NCBI GenBank assembly: GCA_023131975.1
Contig: JAGLYV010000078.1
Coordinates: 73,240 to 137,239, forward strand
DNA from: Candidatus Krumholzibacteriia bacterium
GTDB taxonomy: Bacteria > Krumholzibacteriota > Krumholzibacteriia > Krumholzibacteriales > Krumholzibacteriaceae
DNA: 64,000 bases
Direction: 5' to 3'
Made by a program: the position numbers and the translations under genes. The notes under the pieces are model-generated. The model saw only the letters and a list, made by a program, of their open reading frames with translations. It was not told where the DNA came from and ran no database searches. Shown piece by piece: positions 12,595 through 22,235 of this stretch (positions are counted from its first letter, which is position 1; each line of letters begins with the position of its first letter).

Positions 12595-12664
12595 AAATTA
12601 CCAGTGTTTCGTGAACGTGAAGCATCGAGTCGACATGTTATTTTCGATGTCCGGAGGTAATGCT

Positions 12665-13612
12665 TTGATCCGTGTCAACGGACTCTCAAGAAATTATGGG
12701 TTAAACAAGGCTGTCGACAACCTCACCTTCGATGTAGCGAAGGGAGAGGTCCTTGGATTTCTCGGCCCGAACGGAGCCGGCAAAACGACAACGATGAAGA
12801 TGCTCACATGTTTTCTACCTCCTGATTCGGGCAGCGCTTCGATCTTTGGATACGATATCGTCAGAGATTCCATGGAAGTCCGAAAAAGGATAGGATACCT
12901 CCCGGAAAGATCACCACTCTATTCAGACATGAAAGTCCGCGACTATCTCCATTTCGTGGGCAGGCTGAAAGGTCTGGCCCCACCGCGCCTTAAAAGTGCG
13001 GTTGATAACGCCGTTTCCGGATGTGGCCTCGAGTCAGTTTTCCACAGTACTATCGCAAAACTTTCAAAAGGTTATCAGCAACGTGTCGGAATAGCCCAGG
13101 CCATCCTGCACGATCCTGAACTGCTCATCCTTGATGAACCGACGATAGGTCTTGATCCAAGACAGATAATCGACATCCGGCAACTGATCCGCAACCTGGG
13201 GCGTGACCGTACAGTGATCCTCAGCAGTCATATCCTGCCCGAAGTGAATCAGGTGTGCGACAGGGTGATTATCATAAACAAGGGGAAACTTGTCGCGGTC
13301 GATTCTCCTGATAATCTTCGTGAAAGGCTTAGGAAATCGTCGGTAACCAGGCTCTCTATCGGCAATTCTGTACCGTCCGGAGATATCACCATTGCTCTCG
13401 AATCAATAGAGGGAATACTTCTCGTGAGCAAAGAATACGATGACGGATCGATATCGAAGTATATCATCGAATCGGAAATTGATTCAGATATCCGAAACGC
13501 GATAATCAGGAAACTTGTCAGTGAGGACATCCCTCTTCTCGAGATATATAACGAGGAACTTTCTCTGGAGGACATCTTCATCCAGCTCGTTACCGAGGAG
13601 GCACCCTCTTGA
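12665..13612 (+). CDS. ABC transporter ATP-binding protein, GldA-like
   Basis: GPNGAGKTT, LSKGYQQRVG, LILDEPT, SSHILPEV; TTG start at 12665 chosen for the GGAGG SD 7 nt upstream (track start 12611). Confidence 0.9.
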   Translation: MIRVNGLSRNYGLNKAVDNLTFDVAKGEVLGFLGPNGAGKTTTMKMLTCFLPPDSGSASIFGYDIVRDSMEVRKRIGYLPERSPLYSDMKVRDYLHFVGRLKGLAPPRLKSAVDNAVSGCGLESVFHSTIAKLSKGYQQRVGIAQAILHDPELLILDEPTIGLDPRQIIDIRQLIRNLGRDRTVILSSHILPEVNQVCDRVIIINKGKLVAVDSPDNLRERLRKSSVTRLSIGNSVPSGDITIALESIEGILLVSKEYDDGSISKYIIESEIDSDIRNAIIRKLVSEDIPLLEIYNEELSLEDIFIQLVTEEAPS

Positions 13613-14379
13613 AGAAATTCGGCGCGATATACAGAAAAGAACTCAAGTACTATTTCACGTCTGTGACTGCATACGTCACGATAACAGTCTTCCTGGTACT
13701 TTCGGGTTATTTTTTCTTCTCAATATTCAGAGTCTACAACCTGCTTTCACTTCAGGCGATCAAGAATAACGACTTCAGCGGCAACCTCAATCTTATTGAC
13801 GGAGTGATGAGGCCTCTGATGGGCAACTTCAGCATTATCCTTCTCATCCTCCTTCCTCTTCTGACAATGAGGCTTCTGGCAGAAGAAAGGAAACAGGGCA
13901 CATTCGAACTTCTTTTGACCTACCCTGTAACGGACATGGCTGTGGTCGCCGGGAAATATTTCTCCGCTTTGACGGTCTATACTGTAATGCTCGCGTCCAC
14001 TCTTCTTTATCCCATCCTGTTGATCATTTTCACCGACCCGGAAATAATGCCTTTGGTGTCAGGCTATCTTGGGCTGTTTCTGATGGGCGCGTCATTTATC
14101 TCGATAGGAACCTTCTTTTCAGCGACCACCTCGAACCAGATGGTCGCAGGCGTAGCCACATTCGGGGTCACACTTCTTTTTCTTATAATTGGATGGACCG
14201 CTCCCTTCGCGGGGCCAACGGCCTCGGCGATACTTTCCGAGTTTTCGATACTGTTTCATCTCGATTCCTTCACAAAGGGGATAATAGATACAAGGGATAT
14301 ATCCTATTATCTATTCCTGAGCGGTTTCTTCTTTTTTCTCACACTCAAGTCACTTGAGTCAAACAGGTGGAAGATCTGA
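13609..14379 (+). CDS. ABC-2 permease, GldF-like
   Basis: KELKYYF, PLLTMRLLAEERKQGTFELLLTYPV, FTKGIIDTRD; TTGA overlap with the ATPase gene. Confidence 0.88.
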   Translation: MKKFGAIYRKELKYYFTSVTAYVTITVFLVLSGYFFFSIFRVYNLLSLQAIKNNDFSGNLNLIDGVMRPLMGNFSIILLILLPLLTMRLLAEERKQGTFELLLTYPVTDMAVVAGKYFSALTVYTVMLASTLLYPILLIIFTDPEIMPLVSGYLGLFLMGASFISIGTFFSATTSNQMVAGVATFGVTLLFLIIGWTAPFAGPTASAILSEFSILFHLDSFTKGIIDTRDISYYLFLSGFFFFLTLKSLESNRWKI

Positions 14380-15944
14380 TGAAGGATAATCTCAGAAAGA
14401 TCATAGGCCCCACCGGCCTGATACTTACAGTAATCGGGAGTGTTATATACGGCATTCTCTTTGAGAGCGGATGGATTGCTTTCATCCCTCTTTTTGCCGG
14501 TCTCACTCTCTCCATCCTCGCATTGATAATCGAAGTTCGAGTCTCGTCATCCGAGGGACGCAGGCGTTCGGCCAGATTCGGGATAAACACAGGTGTGACT
14601 ATAGTAGTCGTTGCTGCTCTCCTGTTCTTCGCGCAGACTCTTTCAAAACGCCACAGCCTGAGAATAGACACCACAAGTAACAGAAGGTTCTCCATTTCCC
14701 TTCAGACGGCTAAAGTGCTGAAAAACCTGAAAGACGATATAAGATTCACCTGTTTTTTCAGAGAAGGTGTTCCTGAAAAAACAGAAGTTTTCGACTTACT
14801 TTCAGAATACAGGGTCACCACACCAAAGATAAGCTTCCGCTTCATCGATCCTGACCAGGACCCGATTACCGCAAGAAGATACGAGTTGAAGGATTACAAC
14901 AATATCTACATTGAATCCGGGGACCGCATCGATCTTTTGGAAAACTGGTCGGAACAGCGTATCACAAACGCTATAAAAGCTATCCTTTCCGGAGGAAGGA
15001 AAAAGGTATACTTTACGACTGGCCATGGTGAAAGGTCTATCGAAGACAAAGAACCCTCCGGCCTGAGTTCACTTGCCGAAGCGTTGAGGATTGAAAATTT
15101 CGAGACAGCAGATTTCCTGCCTCTCGGAAGCGACAAGATCCCATCCGACTGCAAACTGCTGGTAATAGCCGGTCCCAAAAAAGACATCCTGAGACCGGAG
15201 CGAAACCTGATATTTGACTATTTGACTTCCGGTGGAAACATACTTCTTCTCCTCGATCCGATCGCCGAGATTCCTTACATCGTATCGGTTGCTTCAGCCT
15301 TCGGGATAGGGGTCGGCGACGACATCATCATCGACACATTCGGAAAGACTCTCGCCGGCAATTACCTCACTCCTGTGGTAAACCAGTACGGGACTCATCC
15401 GATAACCGATCAATTTCGGCTTTTTTCCTTTTTCCCCCAGGCAAGATCCATCAACGTCAGGGAAAATCTGCCGGATGGCGTAATAGTCACAATCCTTGGA
15501 AAGACCGATGATGAGGCCTATGCCGAGACCAGTATCGACACTCTTTTGAATATCGGCAAGACGCAGTTCGAAGCTCCCGACGACCTTCCAGGCCCTATAT
15601 CTCTCATAGCTGCCGGAGAAATGGGACTTCCTCCAGCTCCTGGAGACACACTATTCGACTCCCCTGAGAAAAAAACCAGGGCCGTTGTTTTCGGCGACAG
15701 TGATTTCACCGCCAACGGCAACATCAGGCTGTCCGGAAACCGCGATCTTATTCTGAATACGATCAACTGGCTGGCCGAGGAAGAGGATCTGATCTCTATA
15801 AGACCCGCGGATCGACTCAACCAGCCGGTACTGCTTTCTTCACGCCAGGGCCTGGTTGTATTCTGGTTGTCTGTTATCGGATTCCCGGCTCTCTTCGCCC
15901 TGGCCGGATTGTTCGTCACTCTCCGCATCCGCCGTTCGGATTGA
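14379..15944 (+). CDS. GldG-like ABC auxiliary component
   Basis: Three N-terminal TMs, RIDTT-N-RFS, FIDPDQDP, VYFTTGHGE, VFGDSDF, C-terminal TM; TGATG overlap with the permease gene. Confidence 0.85.
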   Translation: MKDNLRKIIGPTGLILTVIGSVIYGILFESGWIAFIPLFAGLTLSILALIIEVRVSSSEGRRRSARFGINTGVTIVVVAALLFFAQTLSKRHSLRIDTTSNRRFSISLQTAKVLKNLKDDIRFTCFFREGVPEKTEVFDLLSEYRVTTPKISFRFIDPDQDPITARRYELKDYNNIYIESGDRIDLLENWSEQRITNAIKAILSGGRKKVYFTTGHGERSIEDKEPSGLSSLAEALRIENFETADFLPLGSDKIPSDCKLLVIAGPKKDILRPERNLIFDYLTSGGNILLLLDPIAEIPYIVSVASAFGIGVGDDIIIDTFGKTLAGNYLTPVVNQYGTHPITDQFRLFSFFPQARSINVRENLPDGVIVTILGKTDDEAYAETSIDTLLNIGKTQFEAPDDLPGPISLIAAGEMGLPPAPGDTLFDSPEKKTRAVVFGDSDFTANGNIRLSGNRDLILNTINWLAEEEDLISIRPADRLNQPVLLSSRQGLVVFWLSVIGFPALFALAGLFVTLRIRRSD

Positions 15945-15953
15945 GAGGCACTC

Positions 15954-17300
15954 ATGACCTGGAAGACTCCCGTAATCCTCACCTGCATTCTCGTAGTGAT
16001 CGTGGGCTATTTTTTCATCGTGGATCAGGCTGGACATGATAAATCTGAGCTTGAGAAAAGGATTGCAAGAACAGTACTCCCCTACACTATCGAAGAAGTC
16101 GACAGCGTCCACTTCACTAATCCCGTGGGAGAAAACATAAATTTCCTCCGCGATGAGAGCGGCTGGCTCATCGTCTATCCGACGGTTGCACGCGGCGCCC
16201 TTTCTACAATCGAATACTTTATCACCCAGATGATACCCGGTATAAAGAAAAACGAATTCGTACCTGGCGGCAACCTGGCTGATTATGGTCTTTTTCCTCC
16301 TTACGCGATAGTCGTATTCTTTAACGGCACCTCCGGGCGGATCGATACTATGCTCATCGGCGATTCGACTCCGCTGACTTCTCAATGCTACGTTCGCATC
16401 GGAGGGGATGACAGGATATTCGTTACAAGAGACCTCACCCGTAATCTCGTAAAAAAGACTCTATATCATCTTCGTGAGAAATCTTTCATGGACCTTTCTC
16501 CTGATTCCATCTCCGCTTTCAGCGTAAGGACCGGGGAAAGCAGTGTCACTTTCGAGAACCGTCTCGGCGCGTGGCTGATCAGAGGGACAAGGATAGGCGC
16601 CGACAAGAATCTCATACAACCGTACCTTACAGGTATCACCGAAGCCATTATCCAGGAATTTGCTGCTGAAAATACCGGGGCCCTTTCTGAATTCGGTATC
16701 TGCGACTCCTGCAGGGACCTTACCCTCTTCACCGACTCGGATTCGATAACGATATCATTCGGAGGGACCACAGGCGACCTCGTGTACGCTGTCCGCAGAG
16801 GGACTGGAAAAGTGGTTCGCCTGGAAAAGAAACTCGATCGGATATTCGACTGGCTTGATGAAGATGTCCTGGTCATGAACATCTCGTATTTCATCCCTGA
16901 TCAGGTACACTCCCTCACATGGGAAACAGCCGATCGTTCACAGACAATAAGTCGTGAAGTCGATCTCTGGAAGACTGGCTCTTCCATGCCGGTAATCATC
17001 ACTACAAAGAACGTCCACTATCTGCTTACTCTTCTCCGGGGGCTGGTCTTTGATTCTATTGTCACAGTCGGAGAAAAAATTGACTTCGACGCTCCGATCG
17101 GAGATTCTACGACGAAGATCAGTCTTAGAGATATCAATGGTCAGACCATCGACGTCATATTGATATCCAGGGAAATCGACGGCAGCGAAAAAGCCGCGTC
17201 TATTACGACCGGCACATCGGGAACGATCAAAACCAACACATTTGATGAAATAAGAAGGGTATATGCAAGGTTCATACGGGAAGGTGACAGCCTGAAATGA
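15954..17300 (+). CDS. DUF4340-like periplasmic protein with N-terminal TM anchor
   Basis: N-terminal TM, repeated W-I...A units, LADYGL-PP motif; usual position after GldG-like genes. Confidence 0.7.
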   Translation: MTWKTPVILTCILVVIVGYFFIVDQAGHDKSELEKRIARTVLPYTIEEVDSVHFTNPVGENINFLRDESGWLIVYPTVARGALSTIEYFITQMIPGIKKNEFVPGGNLADYGLFPPYAIVVFFNGTSGRIDTMLIGDSTPLTSQCYVRIGGDDRIFVTRDLTRNLVKKTLYHLREKSFMDLSPDSISAFSVRTGESSVTFENRLGAWLIRGTRIGADKNLIQPYLTGITEAIIQEFAAENTGALSEFGICDSCRDLTLFTDSDSITISFGGTTGDLVYAVRRGTGKVVRLEKKLDRIFDWLDEDVLVMNISYFIPDQVHSLTWETADRSQTISREVDLWKTGSSMPVIITTKNVHYLLTLLRGLVFDSIVTVGEKIDFDAPIGDSTTKISLRDINGQTIDVILISREIDGSEKAASITTGTSGTIKTNTFDEIRRVYARFIREGDSLK

Positions 17301-18421
17301 AACGAAATTCTCCGGGCATATTGACTCGCAGAAGTTTTCTCGCCGGGTGTTCAGCGTTTTTTGTTTCAGGTATAGCCTCACCTCTGTCCTCCCTTGCTTC
17401 CCCCGCATTGTCTCCTCTTGAGGCGCGCTTCTATTCGAAGCTGAAGGGGGGAAAAACAATATGCGGACTCTGCCCCCACGGATGCATCATTGACAGCGGT
17501 GAACGGGGGCTGTGTGGAGTAAGGGAAAACCGTGACGGTATTCTTTACTCGCTCGTCTATGGTCTCCCCTGTTCGATCCACCTCGACCCTATCGAGAAAA
17601 AACCTTTTTTTCACTTCCTGCCAGGTTCTTCATCTCTATCGATCTCGACCGTCGGATGCAATATGACCTGCAAATTCTGTCAGAACTGGCAGATATCCCA
17701 ATCATCACCGGAGGATCTTGACACAGATCATCTATCTCCGGAATCGGTCGCGGCCAGGGCCTCTACTCTGGGCGCACGTTCCATCTCTTTCACGTATGGG
17801 GAACCGGTAGTCTTCTACGAGTATATGACCGACATCGCCCTTTCCGCGCGTGATAGAGAGCTGTACAGCGCCGTTGTCACTAACGGCTATTATTCACCGG
17901 ACGCGATCCGTCAGCTCTGCGGTCTGGTAAACGCTGTCAAGATCGACCTCAAATCATTCAGCGAATCATATTACAGAGACATCTGCGGAGCCACTCTACA
18001 GCCTGTCCTGGAAAGCATGAAGATCATCAGGGATTCCGGCACGTGGATGGAGATCGTGTATCTGATGGTTCCCGGACTCAACGACAGCCGGGAAGAGATA
18101 GAGCAGATGGCACGATGGATAGTCGATGAACTGGGCATGGATGTCCCCGTCCATATCTCCCGCTTTTTTCCGCAATACAGGCTGGCTAATCTTCCTCCGA
18201 CTCCCCTCTCTTCTCTTGAATCAGCATACGGCATAATGCGTGATGCTGGTGTCAGGTATGTCTATCTAGGCAACCTGCCTGATCACAGATCCATGAGTAC
18301 CTATTGCCATTCCTGTGGAAAGAAGATAATATCGAGAAAAGGCTACAGGATTTCATCCATATCCTTGAATAATGGAAACTGCGGATTCTGCGGAGAGGAG
18401 ATCCCGGGAATATGGTCCTGA
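17297..18421 (+). CDS. amrS: AmmeMemoRadiSam system radical SAM enzyme with a Tat-like N-terminus
   Basis: CGLCPHGC...GLCGVR, DPIEKKPFFHF, CNMTCKFCQNWQISQ (CxxxCxxC), C-terminal CHSC/CGFC; N-terminal TRRSFLAG. Confidence 0.92.
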   Translation: MKRNSPGILTRRSFLAGCSAFFVSGIASPLSSLASPALSPLEARFYSKLKGGKTICGLCPHGCIIDSGERGLCGVRENRDGILYSLVYGLPCSIHLDPIEKKPFFHFLPGSSSLSISTVGCNMTCKFCQNWQISQSSPEDLDTDHLSPESVAARASTLGARSISFTYGEPVVFYEYMTDIALSARDRELYSAVVTNGYYSPDAIRQLCGLVNAVKIDLKSFSESYYRDICGATLQPVLESMKIIRDSGTWMEIVYLMVPGLNDSREEIEQMARWIVDELGMDVPVHISRFFPQYRLANLPPTPLSSLESAYGIMRDAGVRYVYLGNLPDHRSMSTYCHSCGKKIISRKGYRISSISLNNGNCGFCGEEIPGIWS

Positions 18422-20004
18422 GAAAAACAGGATGGGTCTCTATTCTGATCATCGGGACTTTTCTGACCATGGCAGGTCCGGATCCGGTCAAGTCTAACGG
18501 AAAAAGAGGTCTTTCCATGAAGAACGGCGTACGTTTGCCGGCAGTAGCCGGGCAGTTCTATCCCGATGATCCTGAAGTTCTTCGTAACGAGATCAAAACG
18601 ATGTTTGAAAAGATCGATAACACCCCTCCCGCCGGAACAATCATCGCTCTGGTTTCTCCCCACGCGGGATATGTCTATTCCGGCCAGGTAGCGGCTGAAG
18701 CATTCGCTCGTCTTGAAGAGGGGCAGTTCGAGACAGTCGTCGTCATTTCTCCATGCCACATCGATTTCTTCCCCTATGCTTCCATATTTCATGGTGATGC
18801 CTACAGGACACCCCTTGGAGATATCCAGATCGATTCTACTCTTGCCGTCGCTATCGCGGGCGGTAGCGATTTGATAAAGATCGGTGAATCCGGCCATGTA
18901 GCCGGAAGTAGCGGCAGAGGGGAACATTCTCTCGAAGTTCAACTGCCTTTCCTGCAAGTCGCTCTCGGTGAATTCAAACTCGTACCGATCGTCATGGGAG
19001 ATCAGTCAGCTGACATCATCAAAGAGCTCGCTGCCGCGCTTGGCAGGGAACTGAAAGACAGGAATGTCCTCATGGTCGCGAGTACCGATCTTTCCCATTT
19101 CCACAGCGCTGGTACCGCGGAGTCTCTGGACAGGGTATTCATAGAGAATCTCACCGACCTCGCGCCTGACAAACTGATGCGTTCGATTTCCACACGGCAG
19201 ACTGAAGCCTGTGGAGGCGGCCCGACAGCTGCCGTCATGATAGCAGCGAAAGAACTTGGCGCCGATTGTTGTACTATTCTCAAATACGCAGATTCCGGAG
19301 ATGTCAGCGGGGACGATACGAGTGTCGTTGGATATGTATCAGCATCCATCTCAAGATCTTCTCAACACTCCAAAGACTGTATCGGAAAAGAAAAGCTGAA
19401 GGAACAAGGGTCCCTTAACGATGGTATGGACAATAACAGGGAATCTGGACTTACCGATTCTGACATGAGATTTCTACTTTCTTACGCAAGACACATCCTT
19501 GAAACTTCATTCAACGAAAAGAAAACCGAGCTTACCATCCCCACCTCCGCCATATTGCGTGAGAAACGAGGTGGATTCGTCACCCTTCACAAGAATAACA
19601 GGCTGCGCGGCTGTATAGGATATATCGAAGCCATAAAGCCCCTTATCGATACAATCGCGGAAATGGCCGAAGCGGCCGCGTTTCACGATCATCGTTTTCC
19701 CCCTCTCCGAAAAGAGGAACTTCTCGATATTACCATAGAGATCTCCGTACTCAGCCCCGTCAGAAAGATCGAAGATGTGTCAAACATCGTAGTGGGAAAG
19801 CACGGCATCATCATTTCAGCCGGGGGTCACAGAGGACTTCTTCTCCCACAGGTCGCCACTGAATGGAAATGGGACAGGGAGACATTCCTCTCGCAGACTT
19901 GCCTGAAAGCTGGACTCGATCCGGATGCCTGGAAAGATAAAGAAACGATTATCGAGATCTTTTCAGCAAAGATCTTCTCCGAGAAGGAAATGGGAATGCG
20001 ATAG
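18412..20004 (+). CDS. amrB: AmmeMemoRadiSam protein B (Memo) fused to protein A (AMMECR1)
   Basis: Memo motifs PAVAGQFYP, PHAGYVYSG, EHSLEVQLPFL, STDLSHF, ACGGGP followed by AMMECR1 motifs LRGCIG, DHRFPPL, GLLLPQVA. Confidence 0.92.
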   Translation: MVLRKTGWVSILIIGTFLTMAGPDPVKSNGKRGLSMKNGVRLPAVAGQFYPDDPEVLRNEIKTMFEKIDNTPPAGTIIALVSPHAGYVYSGQVAAEAFARLEEGQFETVVVISPCHIDFFPYASIFHGDAYRTPLGDIQIDSTLAVAIAGGSDLIKIGESGHVAGSSGRGEHSLEVQLPFLQVALGEFKLVPIVMGDQSADIIKELAAALGRELKDRNVLMVASTDLSHFHSAGTAESLDRVFIENLTDLAPDKLMRSISTRQTEACGGGPTAAVMIAAKELGADCCTILKYADSGDVSGDDTSVVGYVSASISRSSQHSKDCIGKEKLKEQGSLNDGMDNNRESGLTDSDMRFLLSYARHILETSFNEKKTELTIPTSAILREKRGGFVTLHKNNRLRGCIGYIEAIKPLIDTIAEMAEAAAFHDHRFPPLRKEELLDITIEISVLSPVRKIEDVSNIVVGKHGIIISAGGHRGLLLPQVATEWKWDRETFLSQTCLKAGLDPDAWKDKETIIEIFSAKIFSEKEMGMR

Positions 20005-20009
20005 CCGTA

Positions 20010-22235
20010 TCAGTCGCTTACTCGACCGACCGCAAGAACTGAACCCACCCCATGCAGAAGGATCACCAGGGCCAGGGTCCACCATGTCCCCACTGCCGGT
20101 ATAAGGACCAGACTTCCAATAATACCACCCACACACCCTCCCAGAAGATCGAGTGAATAATAAAGGGCTGGATTTCTGTCAAGTGAGGCTATTGAAGATG
20201 CCTTGACAGATGCGAGAAAATAGGAGCCGGCAAGGAGACCGTTCAGGAACGAGAAAAGGTAGGTGCCAGCTTCGTGCGCTCTATAGCCGATTCCCGTTCT
20301 TTCCGAGATTACCAGAAATAAGACAAATGAAAGCACCATCATAAGAATAATAATGTGGAGATTCCGACGCTTGTGAAGAACGGCATATCTTTCGGCCAGG
20401 AATCCGCCGGAGCCTAAGGCGGCGCCTGCCATGAAGGAAGCTGAGATCATGACGATACCGTGATAAATGACTCCTGCGACAGCCTGAAGATCCATGATTA
20501 AAACAATCTGAAATACGAGAGCCGCAAATCCGGTCATAATGATCCCGGATCCGGTGTTTCTGTTTCCCCGAACTCCCAGCAGACCTATAAACGGAAGAAC
20601 GGTCAGGATGAGGATCGCTATGCGGGGAACATTGCCGTATCCAGCGAGAAGGGAAAGGACTCTGTTTCCGACACGCCTTGATTCCAGTTCGAGTTCGTAG
20701 TCCACCAGCGCGGGCATCCTGTCACTGTTGATCCTGACGTTGTTTCCACCTTCCATCGCCTTCATGAGATGACTGACCCTTTCCACACCCAACCTTTCCG
20801 GCAACGCGTCTCCTGTAAAGAACCCTGAATCCAACTCTCTCTCTCTCAGCTTGTCCATAATGTCATTGGCCCGTACTTTTCTACTTCCCGCAATAAAGTG
20901 TGCCGTGCTGCCGGGAAAGACAGATACCGAATCGAACTCCTCTTCGAGTGTGCGGTAGATACAGGACAAGGCTCTGGAAAGCTCGGGGGAAATATAGTTT
21001 TCGGACGATCTATGGGATAATGCCAGAAATCCACCGGATCGCAGACGATCCGACACCTCCCTGAAGAACTCTTTTGTGTAATATCGGTTCCACATCAGGT
21101 TTATCGGAAGAGGGGTATTGATAATGATCAGGTCGTACATATCGCTGGTCGACGAAAGATATCTTCTTGCGTCATCGATGATCCATTCGACTGAGGGGGC
21201 TTCCGGCCCGGCATTGTCCCGACTGGAAGATGCGGGCCCATATTTCCCGTAGAGTTCCAATAACGACCTGTCCAGTTCTACACAGTGGATATCCCTGACT
21301 CCCCGATGTAAAGATATCTCATCGATCGTCCCTCCAATAGTCCCTCCCGCAAGCAGGATTCTTTCCGGATCGTCAACTGAAAGCATCGGTATGTGGACAG
21401 CTTCACCGGCTCCGACAGGGTCCGGCACGGAAAACAGCCTTCCACCACCCGAGTATATGGATATGATCTCTCCCGAACTGACCATGTCGGACTCGCTGTA
21501 CCGTGATGAGGTGGAGGCTATGTAATCGTACCCCCTGTAGATATGTCTTCTGCTGTCCTGATCGATCTTGCTTCCACCGAATATGATCAACCCTGCAGCA
21601 GATACTGAAAGTGCTATCGCTACAAATGAGATCTTTCCACGAAAAGGGTACGCCGTAGTCGCGATAATGACTGCCGAAATTATGAGAGCTGCTTCGAAAT
21701 GCGAAAACCACCGCAGAAGAAGAGTATTAAAAAGCAGCCCTCCCACTACAGCCCCGACTGCCTCCAGGCAGTAGACCCTCGAAATCGTACTTTTCAGACC
21801 GTTCTCATCCGAGTCCCGGGATCTGACAGCCATATTGAATAATGCCCCGAAAATAATGGCTGTAGGAGCTATGACAAAAAATGCGAAAATAAGAGCCCGG
21901 CCATATTCGGGAATCGTACCTGGAGGAAAAGCCAGCACGCTCCTTCCGGCTCTTATACCTATTACCGTGAAAGGCAGCAGAATCGAGACGATCAAAGCAA
22001 AAGAGCCCAGGACCGACTTGGAGTATTTTACTACCCTGGATGAGAAACGTGCCGCAGCCAGACCACCCATTCCAACCCAGAACAACCATGAAGAAAGGAT
22101 AAATCCGATCGTAAACTCAGTACCCGAGAAAAGACAGAGAAGCTCCCGGATGTACAAGGCCTGGGAACAGAGGGCCCCGGCCCCGAAAGCCACTATATGG
22201 ACAGTGGATGGATATTGACGATTAGCACAGGGCAA
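20010..22235 (-). CDS. Fused multi-TM (MFS-like)/spermidine-synthase-like protein
   Basis: TM blocks flank a Rossmann domain (ILLAGGTIGG, CVELD, DDARRYL, YDLIIINTPLP, YYTKEFF); TTG start at 22235 after a GGAGG SD (track start 22358 overlaps the upstream gene). Confidence 0.8.
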   Translation of the reverse strand: MPCANRQYPSTVHIVAFGAGALCSQALYIRELLCLFSGTEFTIGFILSSWLFWVGMGGLAAARFSSRVVKYSKSVLGSFALIVSILLPFTVIGIRAGRSVLAFPPGTIPEYGRALIFAFFVIAPTAIIFGALFNMAVRSRDSDENGLKSTISRVYCLEAVGAVVGGLLFNTLLLRWFSHFEAALIISAVIIATTAYPFRGKISFVAIALSVSAAGLIIFGGSKIDQDSRRHIYRGYDYIASTSSRYSESDMVSSGEIISIYSGGGRLFSVPDPVGAGEAVHIPMLSVDDPERILLAGGTIGGTIDEISLHRGVRDIHCVELDRSLLELYGKYGPASSSRDNAGPEAPSVEWIIDDARRYLSSTSDMYDLIIINTPLPINLMWNRYYTKEFFREVSDRLRSGGFLALSHRSSENYISPELSRALSCIYRTLEEEFDSVSVFPGSTAHFIAGSRKVRANDIMDKLRERELDSGFFTGDALPERLGVERVSHLMKAMEGGNNVRINSDRMPALVDYELELESRRVGNRVLSLLAGYGNVPRIAILILTVLPFIGLLGVRGNRNTGSGIIMTGFAALVFQIVLIMDLQAVAGVIYHGIVMISASFMAGAALGSGGFLAERYAVLHKRRNLHIIILMMVLSFVLFLVISERTGIGYRAHEAGTYLFSFLNGLLAGSYFLASVKASSIASLDRNPALYYSLDLLGGCVGGIIGSLVLIPAVGTWWTLALVILLHGVGSVLAVGRVSD

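Follow-up and report, generated by a model that had tools for sequence, protein, structure and literature searches.

A predicted twin-arginine signal on an AmmeMemoRadiSam radical SAM enzyme and the probably extracytoplasmic system around it

Can a radical S-adenosylmethionine (SAM) enzyme work outside the cytoplasm? The question is raised by a stretch of 64,000 nucleotides from a Candidatus Krumholzibacteriia bacterium (contig JAGLYV010000078.1; the whole stretch is called the 64-kb window below), in which a gene for a radical SAM enzyme of the AmmeMemoRadiSam family (rSAM) begins with what an earlier note on this DNA had read as a signal for the twin-arginine translocation (Tat) pathway. To our knowledge, all radical SAM chemistry described so far takes place in the cytoplasm, alongside SAM, Fe-S assembly and low-potential reductants, and SAM, a metabolite of the cytoplasm, has no periplasmic pool that we know of. 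From the sequence comparisons and predicted structures described here, we consider it probable that this enzyme is exported by Tat and acts on the periplasmic side of the membrane, together with an exported Memo-AMMECR1 protein and a membrane partner whose SAM-fold domain faces outward.

In the rSAM N-terminus, the family domain is preceded by MKRNSPGIL-TRRSFL-AGCSAFFVSGIASPLSSLA. When we checked this region in 200 homologues, consisting of the 120 best database homologues (53-99% identity) and 80 genomic loci, a twin-arginine (RR) pair with a hydrophobic h-region was present in 186, and nearly all of the 120 database homologues showed x-R-R-x-F-[LI], a hydrophobic stretch and then the EARYYEK domain start. 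The consensus of the 186 RR sequences is [S/T/N/D]-R-R-x-F-[L/I]-[K]-G-S, and the enzyme studied here reads T-R-R-S-F-L-A, which confirms the (S/T)RRxFL consensus named in the earlier note. The 80 loci span at least 17 named phyla, including Acidobacteriota, Aminicenantes, Zixibacteria, Calditrichota, KSB1, Krumholzibacteriota, Omnitrophota, Planctomycetota, Chloroflexota and Latescibacterota, and show the same RR pattern; conservation of the pair among orthologues, which had been proposed as a check, is thus found across about 17 phyla. In an alignment of 40 rSAM sequences spread across phyla (alignment A2, also used for the AlphaFold model of rSAM), R11 and R12 never vary, and F14 is conserved to at least 90%. 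Between motif and domain, the stretch that holds the h- and c-regions is free to vary in both length and sequence in A2 and therefore fits a signal peptide plus linker. The 14 exceptions among the 200 homologues are about eight gene calls whose start falls within the h-region, three Sec-like N-termini (L062, L073 and L075), locus L048, with an unclear N-terminus in which no RR was seen, and the bare calls P0114 and P0119. Within the 64-kb window, the RR-plus-hydrophobic motif of rSAM is the only one among open reading frames (ORFs) of at least 120 aa, and some members of the family carry the database flag PF10518 (Tat signal family). A lipobox reading of L15-A16-G17-C18 (17339-17350), right after the RR pair, was rejected as improbable, since this segment lies ahead of the h-region and its Cys is not kept in A2.

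By every feature tested, the ORF behind this signal is a member of TIGR04337. It scored 373.2 bits against a cutoff of 220 with the NCBIfam hidden Markov model (HMM), which covered residues 43-373, and also matched PF04055 (Radical_SAM; E=2e-23 in Pfam). As the TIGR04337 model begins at residue 43, the first 42 residues lie outside the family model. Three sets of cysteines are invariant in A2: the radical SAM cluster residues C121, C125 and C128, an N-terminal set of four (C56, C59, C63 and C73), and a C-terminal CxxC...CxxC set (C337, C340, C362 and C365). The AlphaFold model agrees with this division, with a lone helix at residues 11-26 of low pLDDT (predicted local distance difference test), a low-confidence linker to about residue 40 and a domain of pLDDT above 90 from residue 41. 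The rSAM gene also adjoins and overlaps a gene that matches both TIGR04336 and TIGR04335 (274 and 192 bits, both above cutoff). The best solved structural neighbour is the pyruvate formate-lyase (PFL)-activating enzyme 3cb8 (Foldseek E=4e-13, target-normalised template-modelling score 0.77). The identity of a glycyl-radical-enzyme activase was nevertheless rejected, because TIGR02493 gave 63.4 bits against a cutoff of 231.75 and TIGR02494 gave 58.7 against 174.35, and no gene for a glycyl-radical (PFL-like) enzyme was found within 10 kb of the rSAM gene. The enzyme resembles glycyl-radical activases in fold, but not by HMM score or gene context.

The partner encoded by the overlapping gene is a Memo-AMMECR1 fusion (AmmeMemoRadiSam B+A), and the two genes share 10 nt. 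Ahead of its family models, the partner has a predicted Sec-type export signal in its N-terminal 22 aa, and a strongly hydrophobic N-terminus flanked by K/R was found in 33 of 35 adjacent Memo(-AMMECR1) orthologues, five of these 33 with a lipobox. Using the 13-mer maximum on the Kyte-Doolittle scale, the two kinds of signal can be compared: the median h-region hydropathy is 1.43 for the rSAM RR signals and 2.72 for the Memo(-AMMECR1) partner signals (Mann-Whitney p=1.5e-15), and the values in the window are 1.89 for rSAM and 2.25 for Memo-AMMECR1. Tat h-regions are less hydrophobic than Sec h-regions, and the gap between the two medians matches this textbook difference within one operon. The moderately hydrophobic h-region noted earlier is therefore borne out, and, judged by its sequence, the candidate signal on rSAM has both the consensus motif and the weak h-region hydropathy of a Tat signal.

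Beyond the Memo-AMMECR1 gene, on the opposite strand, lies a gene for a polytopic membrane protein, and a homologue of it is the most constant neighbour of the presumably exported rSAM, standing directly beside it in 42 of the 80 loci. In 27 of these 42 the gene comes immediately after rSAM on the same strand and neither Memo nor AMMECR1 is found within 6 kb, and in the other 15 it is convergent and comes after Memo-AMMECR1; a homologue is also found behind a DsbD_2-rSAM fusion in L085. The protein is laid out as seven transmembrane (TM) helices, a spermidine-synthase-like domain and about six further TM helices (AlphaFold pLDDT 88.5, predicted template-modelling score 0.91). In the average of 36 homologues, K/R residues are abundant in the loops at the far ends of TM7 (PFRGK) and TM8 (VRGNRN) and in those after TM2 and TM10 (HKRRN), but not in the loops on the side of the soluble domain. 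Because the opposite-side loops are the K/R-rich ones, the positive-inside rule predicts that the SAM-fold domain is periplasmic. Its fold is aminopropyltransferase-like, as only aminopropyltransferases were matched by Foldseek (target-normalised template-modelling scores of 0.68-0.76), and it retains the nucleotide-binding motifs GGGxGG, VELDP and DGR. It is without the Asp that selects decarboxylated SAM and without the catalytic Asp residues of DSxDP: in the family, GGGxGG lacks the Asp and DSxDP is replaced by NLP[ED]P, and the copy in the window reads INTPLP. The identity of SpeE was rejected for this protein, since it scored 109 bits against 472 with the best model, NF002956, and 72 against 249.55 with TIGR00417, and the catalytic residues are lost. 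Lying below all SpeE cutoffs, the membrane partner is taken as a distinct, undescribed family.

More distant relatives of the enzyme suggest how electrons might be supplied on the outer side. Using the 150 best relatives (38-52% identity) from 1.84 billion cluster representatives, a tree of the rSAM domain with 142 rows was built with FastTree, in which 88 rows stand for bare forms, cytoplasmic and about 335 aa long, 25 were classed as Tat forms, seven have other hydrophobic N-termini, seven are fusions with electron modules and 15 were classed as 'other'. These N-terminal classes are strongly clustered on the tree (0 of 500 shuffles), whose deep branches are unresolved. The fusions, seen in relatives at 40-50% identity, comprise DsbD_2-rSAM (P0129 and P0163), FMN_bind-Fer4_5(NapH-like)-TM-rSAM (P0131 and P0138), DsbD_2-FMN_bind-Fer4_5-rSAM (P0134) and, behind an RR or TM N-terminus, FMN_bind-rSAM with no TM helix between the two domains (P0142 and P0155). 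In the NapH-like fusions, the last TM helix comes after a K/R-rich loop bearing CX3CP, so the rSAM domain is placed outside, and in P0129 the alternation of K/R-rich loops likewise places the C-terminal rSAM domain outside. The same modules also occur as separate genes: at L084:658-3785 a DsbD_2-Fer4_5 gene overlaps an FMN_bind-rSAM gene as a split pair, at L042:1998-4336 a Tat-rSAM gene precedes an FMN_bind gene, with a DsbD_2-like gene after that, and at L017:488-2375 DsbD_2 and NapH-like genes lie upstream of rSAM. Taken together, the fused relatives suggest that DsbD_2, NapH-like and FMN_bind modules may answer the question of electron supply, which the earlier note had raised along with that of SAM. 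Other relatives carry CBM_11 or beta-propeller domains ahead of rSAM (P0121 and P0125). In Chloroflexota forms (L022:5553-7011, L037:4837-6163, L071:1433-2783 and P0127), some 30 aa that include a CxxCH motif of haem-c type are inserted between the EARFY domain start and the CxxCPxxC cluster motif; this insertion is absent from the rSAM of the window. The Sec signals of Memo-AMMECR1, the topology of the membrane partner, the electron-module fusions and the relatives with CBM, beta-propeller or CxxCH features are the grounds on which the system is placed outside the cytoplasm. The suggestion in the earlier note that the enzyme is extracytoplasmic thus gains support from the signals of its partner, the outward SAM-type domain and the fusions of its relatives.

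The whole reading depends on the RR peptide being translated, and a gene-calling artefact, in which the true start lies past the hydrophobic stretch, can hardly account for the data. Start choices do differ: the NCBI gene call (GCA_030629965.1, DAOVNZ010000001.1) begins at TTG 17321, eight codons after ATG 17297, and gives a protein of 366 aa opening MTRRSF..., and a further TTG at 17408 sits after the h-region. However, both proposed starts contain the RR motif, so that the start downstream of the signal which the earlier note had set as a refutation was not found; the next Met falls within CX3CX2C, and across phyla the amino acids of the signal region are conserved, with RR invariant. ATG 17297 overlaps the stop codon of the upstream DUF4340 gene (ATGA) and has a Shine-Dalgarno-like site ahead of it, and no comparable site was read in the sequence ahead of TTG 17321. 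We favour ATG 17297 over TTG 17321, because the residues before the TTG codon, ahead of the RR motif, are kept in P0002, a homologue of 79% identity (MRRDSPGILTRRSF). The ATGA overlap, put forward earlier as support for this start, holds and is now joined by the AAGGTGA site and by conservation in P0002. The N-terminal signal of rSAM is neither a chance match nor a start-codon artefact. A translated RR segment might still fail to translocate, as a remnant signal or a peripheral anchor that keeps the enzyme on the cytoplasmic face with a membrane substrate. NarG has such a vestigial Tat motif, which binds its chaperone only; radical SAM enzymes are known to us only from the cytoplasm, with SAM and low-potential reductants, and a membrane-associated substrate would suit the conserved polytopic partner. 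We regard this as unlikely, because the full canonical RR motif is kept and not degenerate, it is followed by an h-region typical of Tat and by a linker that varies, and the positive charge on the N side predicts an N-in/C-out orientation. The partners, moreover, bear classical Sec or lipoprotein signals, the Chloroflexota forms have a haem-c motif, and in the FMN_bind-rSAM fusions no TM helix intervenes between rSAM and an FMN_bind domain of a type that is extracytosolic (PMC8238504).

Export could also follow the chemistry, with the radical step done inside on rSAM itself or on a bound partner, and the protein then sent out as a spent, structural or Fe-S-carrying component. The problem of SAM supply would disappear, and Tat does carry folded proteins with their cofactors. 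The closest fold is that of the PFL-activating enzyme, and activases of this type use one SAM per activation event. What makes this account improbable in our view is the company that the enzyme keeps. With its Sec-type signal, Memo-AMMECR1 would cross the membrane unfolded and could bear neither a radical nor a pre-formed complex; relatives are fused to modules that deliver electrons outward, which implies reduction of the cluster outside; and the adjacent membrane protein is predicted to show its SAM-fold domain on the outer side.

Several observations weigh against Tat export and action in the periplasm. No match to TatA or TatC was found in the window ORFs or the 80 loci with phmmer and E. 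coli queries, a search that covers only 64 kb of the genome. Of the SLA cleavage-like site named in the earlier note, a plausible -3/-1 match, S-L-A|S, is present, but its position is not conserved in A2. Topology was called from hydropathy, the positive-inside rule and the helices of AlphaFold models, and not by a dedicated predictor. FMN_bind, NapH-like and DsbD_2 genes were not found in the 64-kb window using HMMs made from the fused relatives, and such a gene lies near rSAM in only about 7 of the 80 Tat-form loci. We know of no SAM route into the periplasm. Finally, some relatives have Sec-like or very hydrophobic N-termini without RR ahead of rSAM (P0156, P0121, P0125, L062:5911-6999, L073:277-1392 and L075:1127-2377), and P0156 is a triple fusion of signal, Memo, AMMECR1 and rSAM (835 aa) with a Sec-type N-terminus; in these RR-less relatives, export by Sec is incompatible with Fe-S insertion in the cytoplasm. 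A small RR protein acting in trans was considered for RR-less enzymes and rejected, since none was found upstream at L062, L073 or L075 and the RR signal at L048 belongs to a 318-aa ORF.

This ORF (at about nucleotide 5063 of L048) lies upstream of rSAM and has its own RR signal, LSRRTFLGSS, and the rSAM of that locus shows no RR. At L017:4908-5912, a DUF362-type protein is encoded directly upstream of rSAM in the same position. Hitch-hiking of the RR-less L048 enzyme is a possibility.

If rSAM is exported by Tat and acts outside, the course of events might be as follows. The enzyme would fold and receive its [4Fe-4S] clusters in the cytoplasm, and the T-R-R-S-F-L signal would then bring it to the Tat translocase for transfer across the inner membrane; on the periplasmic side it may either be freed by cleavage near SLA|S or stay tethered. 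Outside, it would cooperate with the Sec-exported Memo-AMMECR1 protein and with the outward SAM-fold domain of the protein with 13/14 TM helices. Electrons would arrive, in the relatives, through the DsbD_2, NapH-like and FMN_bind modules. SAM could be carried out bound to the cluster for one use, could serve as a regenerated cofactor, as it does in lysine 2,3-aminomutase, or could be exported or supplied by the conserved membrane partner. A bolder version, which we put forward only tentatively and think more doubtful than likely, is a self-contained extracytoplasmic rSAM system in many anaerobic phyla, in which the Tat-exported rSAM has the Sec-exported Memo-AMMECR1 protein as partner or substrate, the 13/14-TM protein both exports and presents SAM or a SAM-derived cosubstrate, and electrons come through DsbD_2, NapH-like or FMN_bind modules or through haem c.

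The features discussed are collected in Table 1. Upstream of rSAM and in the same direction lies a group of transport genes, the last of which, the DUF4340 gene, is translationally coupled to the rSAM gene through the ATGA overlap. Only L001, L004 and L005, the closest loci, share this GldG-like/DUF4340/ABC-2 context; L002 has a remnant of DUF4340. As a core partner, the operon was therefore rejected, being conserved only in the three to five closest loci, and we regard the ABC/DUF4340 context as specific to the lineage. LpxB and LpxK are encoded within 10 kb of the rSAM gene, so the organism is diderm and has a periplasm. Neither a Tat chaperone nor a respiratory partner was found near the rSAM gene.

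Table 1 Features of the rSAM locus in the 64-kb window (positions counted from the first nucleotide of the window).
Feature	Position	Strand	Basis or remark
ABC ATPase, ABC-2 permease, GldG-like ABC_transp_aux protein and DUF4340 genes	12611..17300	+	co-directional, upstream of rSAM
Shine-Dalgarno-like AAGGTGA	17281..17287	+	about 10 nt before ATG 17297; read from sequence
AmmeMemoRadiSam radical SAM enzyme ORF	17297..18421	+	374 aa, opening MKRNSPGILTRRSFLAGCSAFFVSGIASPLSSLASPALSPLEARFY
Predicted Tat signal peptide, residues 1-34	17297..17398	+	MKRNSPGIL / TRRSFL / h-region AGCSAFFVSGIA / c-region SPLSSLA
Twin-arginine motif T10-R11-R12-S13-F14-L15	17324..17341	+	alignment A2; consensus of 186 sequences
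Mature AmmeMemoRadiSam radical SAM domain, residues 42-374 and stop	17420..18421	+	TIGR04337, PF04055, AlphaFold
Radical SAM cluster motif C121-x3-C125-x2-C128 (CNMTCKFC)	17657..17680	+	alignment A2
Memo-AMMECR1 fusion (AmmeMemoRadiSam B+A)	18412..20004	+	TIGR04336 residues 41-312, TIGR04335 residues 354-522
Predicted Sec-type signal of Memo-AMMECR1, N-terminal 22 aa MVLRKTGWVSILIIGTFLTMAG	18412-18477	+	ahead of family models (from residue 41)
Polytopic membrane protein	20010..22193	-	PF01564; 727 aa (NCBI start; ORF open to 22358)
Spermidine-synthase-like (SAM-fold) domain between TM7 and TM8, predicted periplasmic	20625..21539	-	positive-inside rule

If the proposed export and periplasmic action are true, SAM or a bound SAM cofactor, together with reducing power below the usual periplasmic range, would have to be present outside the membrane in anaerobes. 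This would open a new compartment for radical enzymology and give a first handle on a possible bacterial route of SAM export. It would also offer a fresh angle on the function of Memo and AMMECR1 proteins, whose human homologues are linked to disease. The DsbD_2, NapH-like and FMN_bind fusions render the electron path directly testable. In the searchable literature, no description of an exported radical SAM enzyme, or of exported Memo or AMMECR1 proteins, came to light; Burroughs et al. 2019 (JBC), reportedly the key comparative paper on Memo-AMMECR1-rSAM contexts, might mention secreted versions. The Tat motif is machine-annotated in some members of the family (PF10518) but apparently undiscussed in the literature.

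Compared with the canonical AmmeMemoRadiSam system, the locus has the same components: TIGR04337, TIGR04336 and TIGR04335 are all matched above cutoff, the genes are adjacent and translationally coupled, and the CX3CX2C motif and the accessory Cys sets are present. It differs in that a canonical member has about 335 aa and lacks any extension at the N-terminus (88 of the 142 tree rows are such bare proteins), whereas rSAM here carries a predicted Tat signal, the B and A proteins are fused behind a predicted Sec signal, and a polytopic spermidine-synthase-like protein is added as a conserved partner. The enzyme can also be set beside the known Tat-exported iron-sulfur proteins, such as NapG, HybA, DmsB and the hydrogenase small subunits. 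It shares with them the S/T-R-R-x-F-L motif, the weakly hydrophobic h-region and a passenger that needs [4Fe-4S] insertion in the cytoplasm; those proteins, however, are electron-transfer subunits of respiratory enzymes, and the passenger here is a radical SAM enzyme that needs SAM as well. With the PFL-activating enzyme (3cb8, 3c8f), which is cytoplasmic and is its best sequence match in the PDB, it has in common the partial TIM-barrel radical SAM core, but the identity is only 17% and rSAM has extra Cys-rich modules at both its N- and C-terminal ends.

The nearest parallels for an outward electron supply are the flavinylated NapH-like/NosR-like and DsbD-type systems described by Meheust et al. 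2021 (PMC8238504), in which FMN_bind, NapH-like and DsbD modules are electron conduits across the membrane to extracytosolic enzymes. Relatives of rSAM are likewise fused or adjacent to FMN_bind plus Fer4_5 and to a DsbD-like membrane domain. The DsbD systems of that study are defined by PF02683, whereas the domain found here is Pfam DsbD_2, PF13386, and, in the HMM search, the 64-kb window was without such a module; S-adenosyl compounds, Memo and AMMECR1 are absent from the main text of that paper. Radical SAM maturases that act on Tat-exported substrates are a further parallel. One of them, in the HXS anti-phage system (PMC13128918), also brings together a radical SAM enzyme and a Tat signal within one system, but there the signal is reportedly on the matured effector, and here it is on the radical SAM enzyme.

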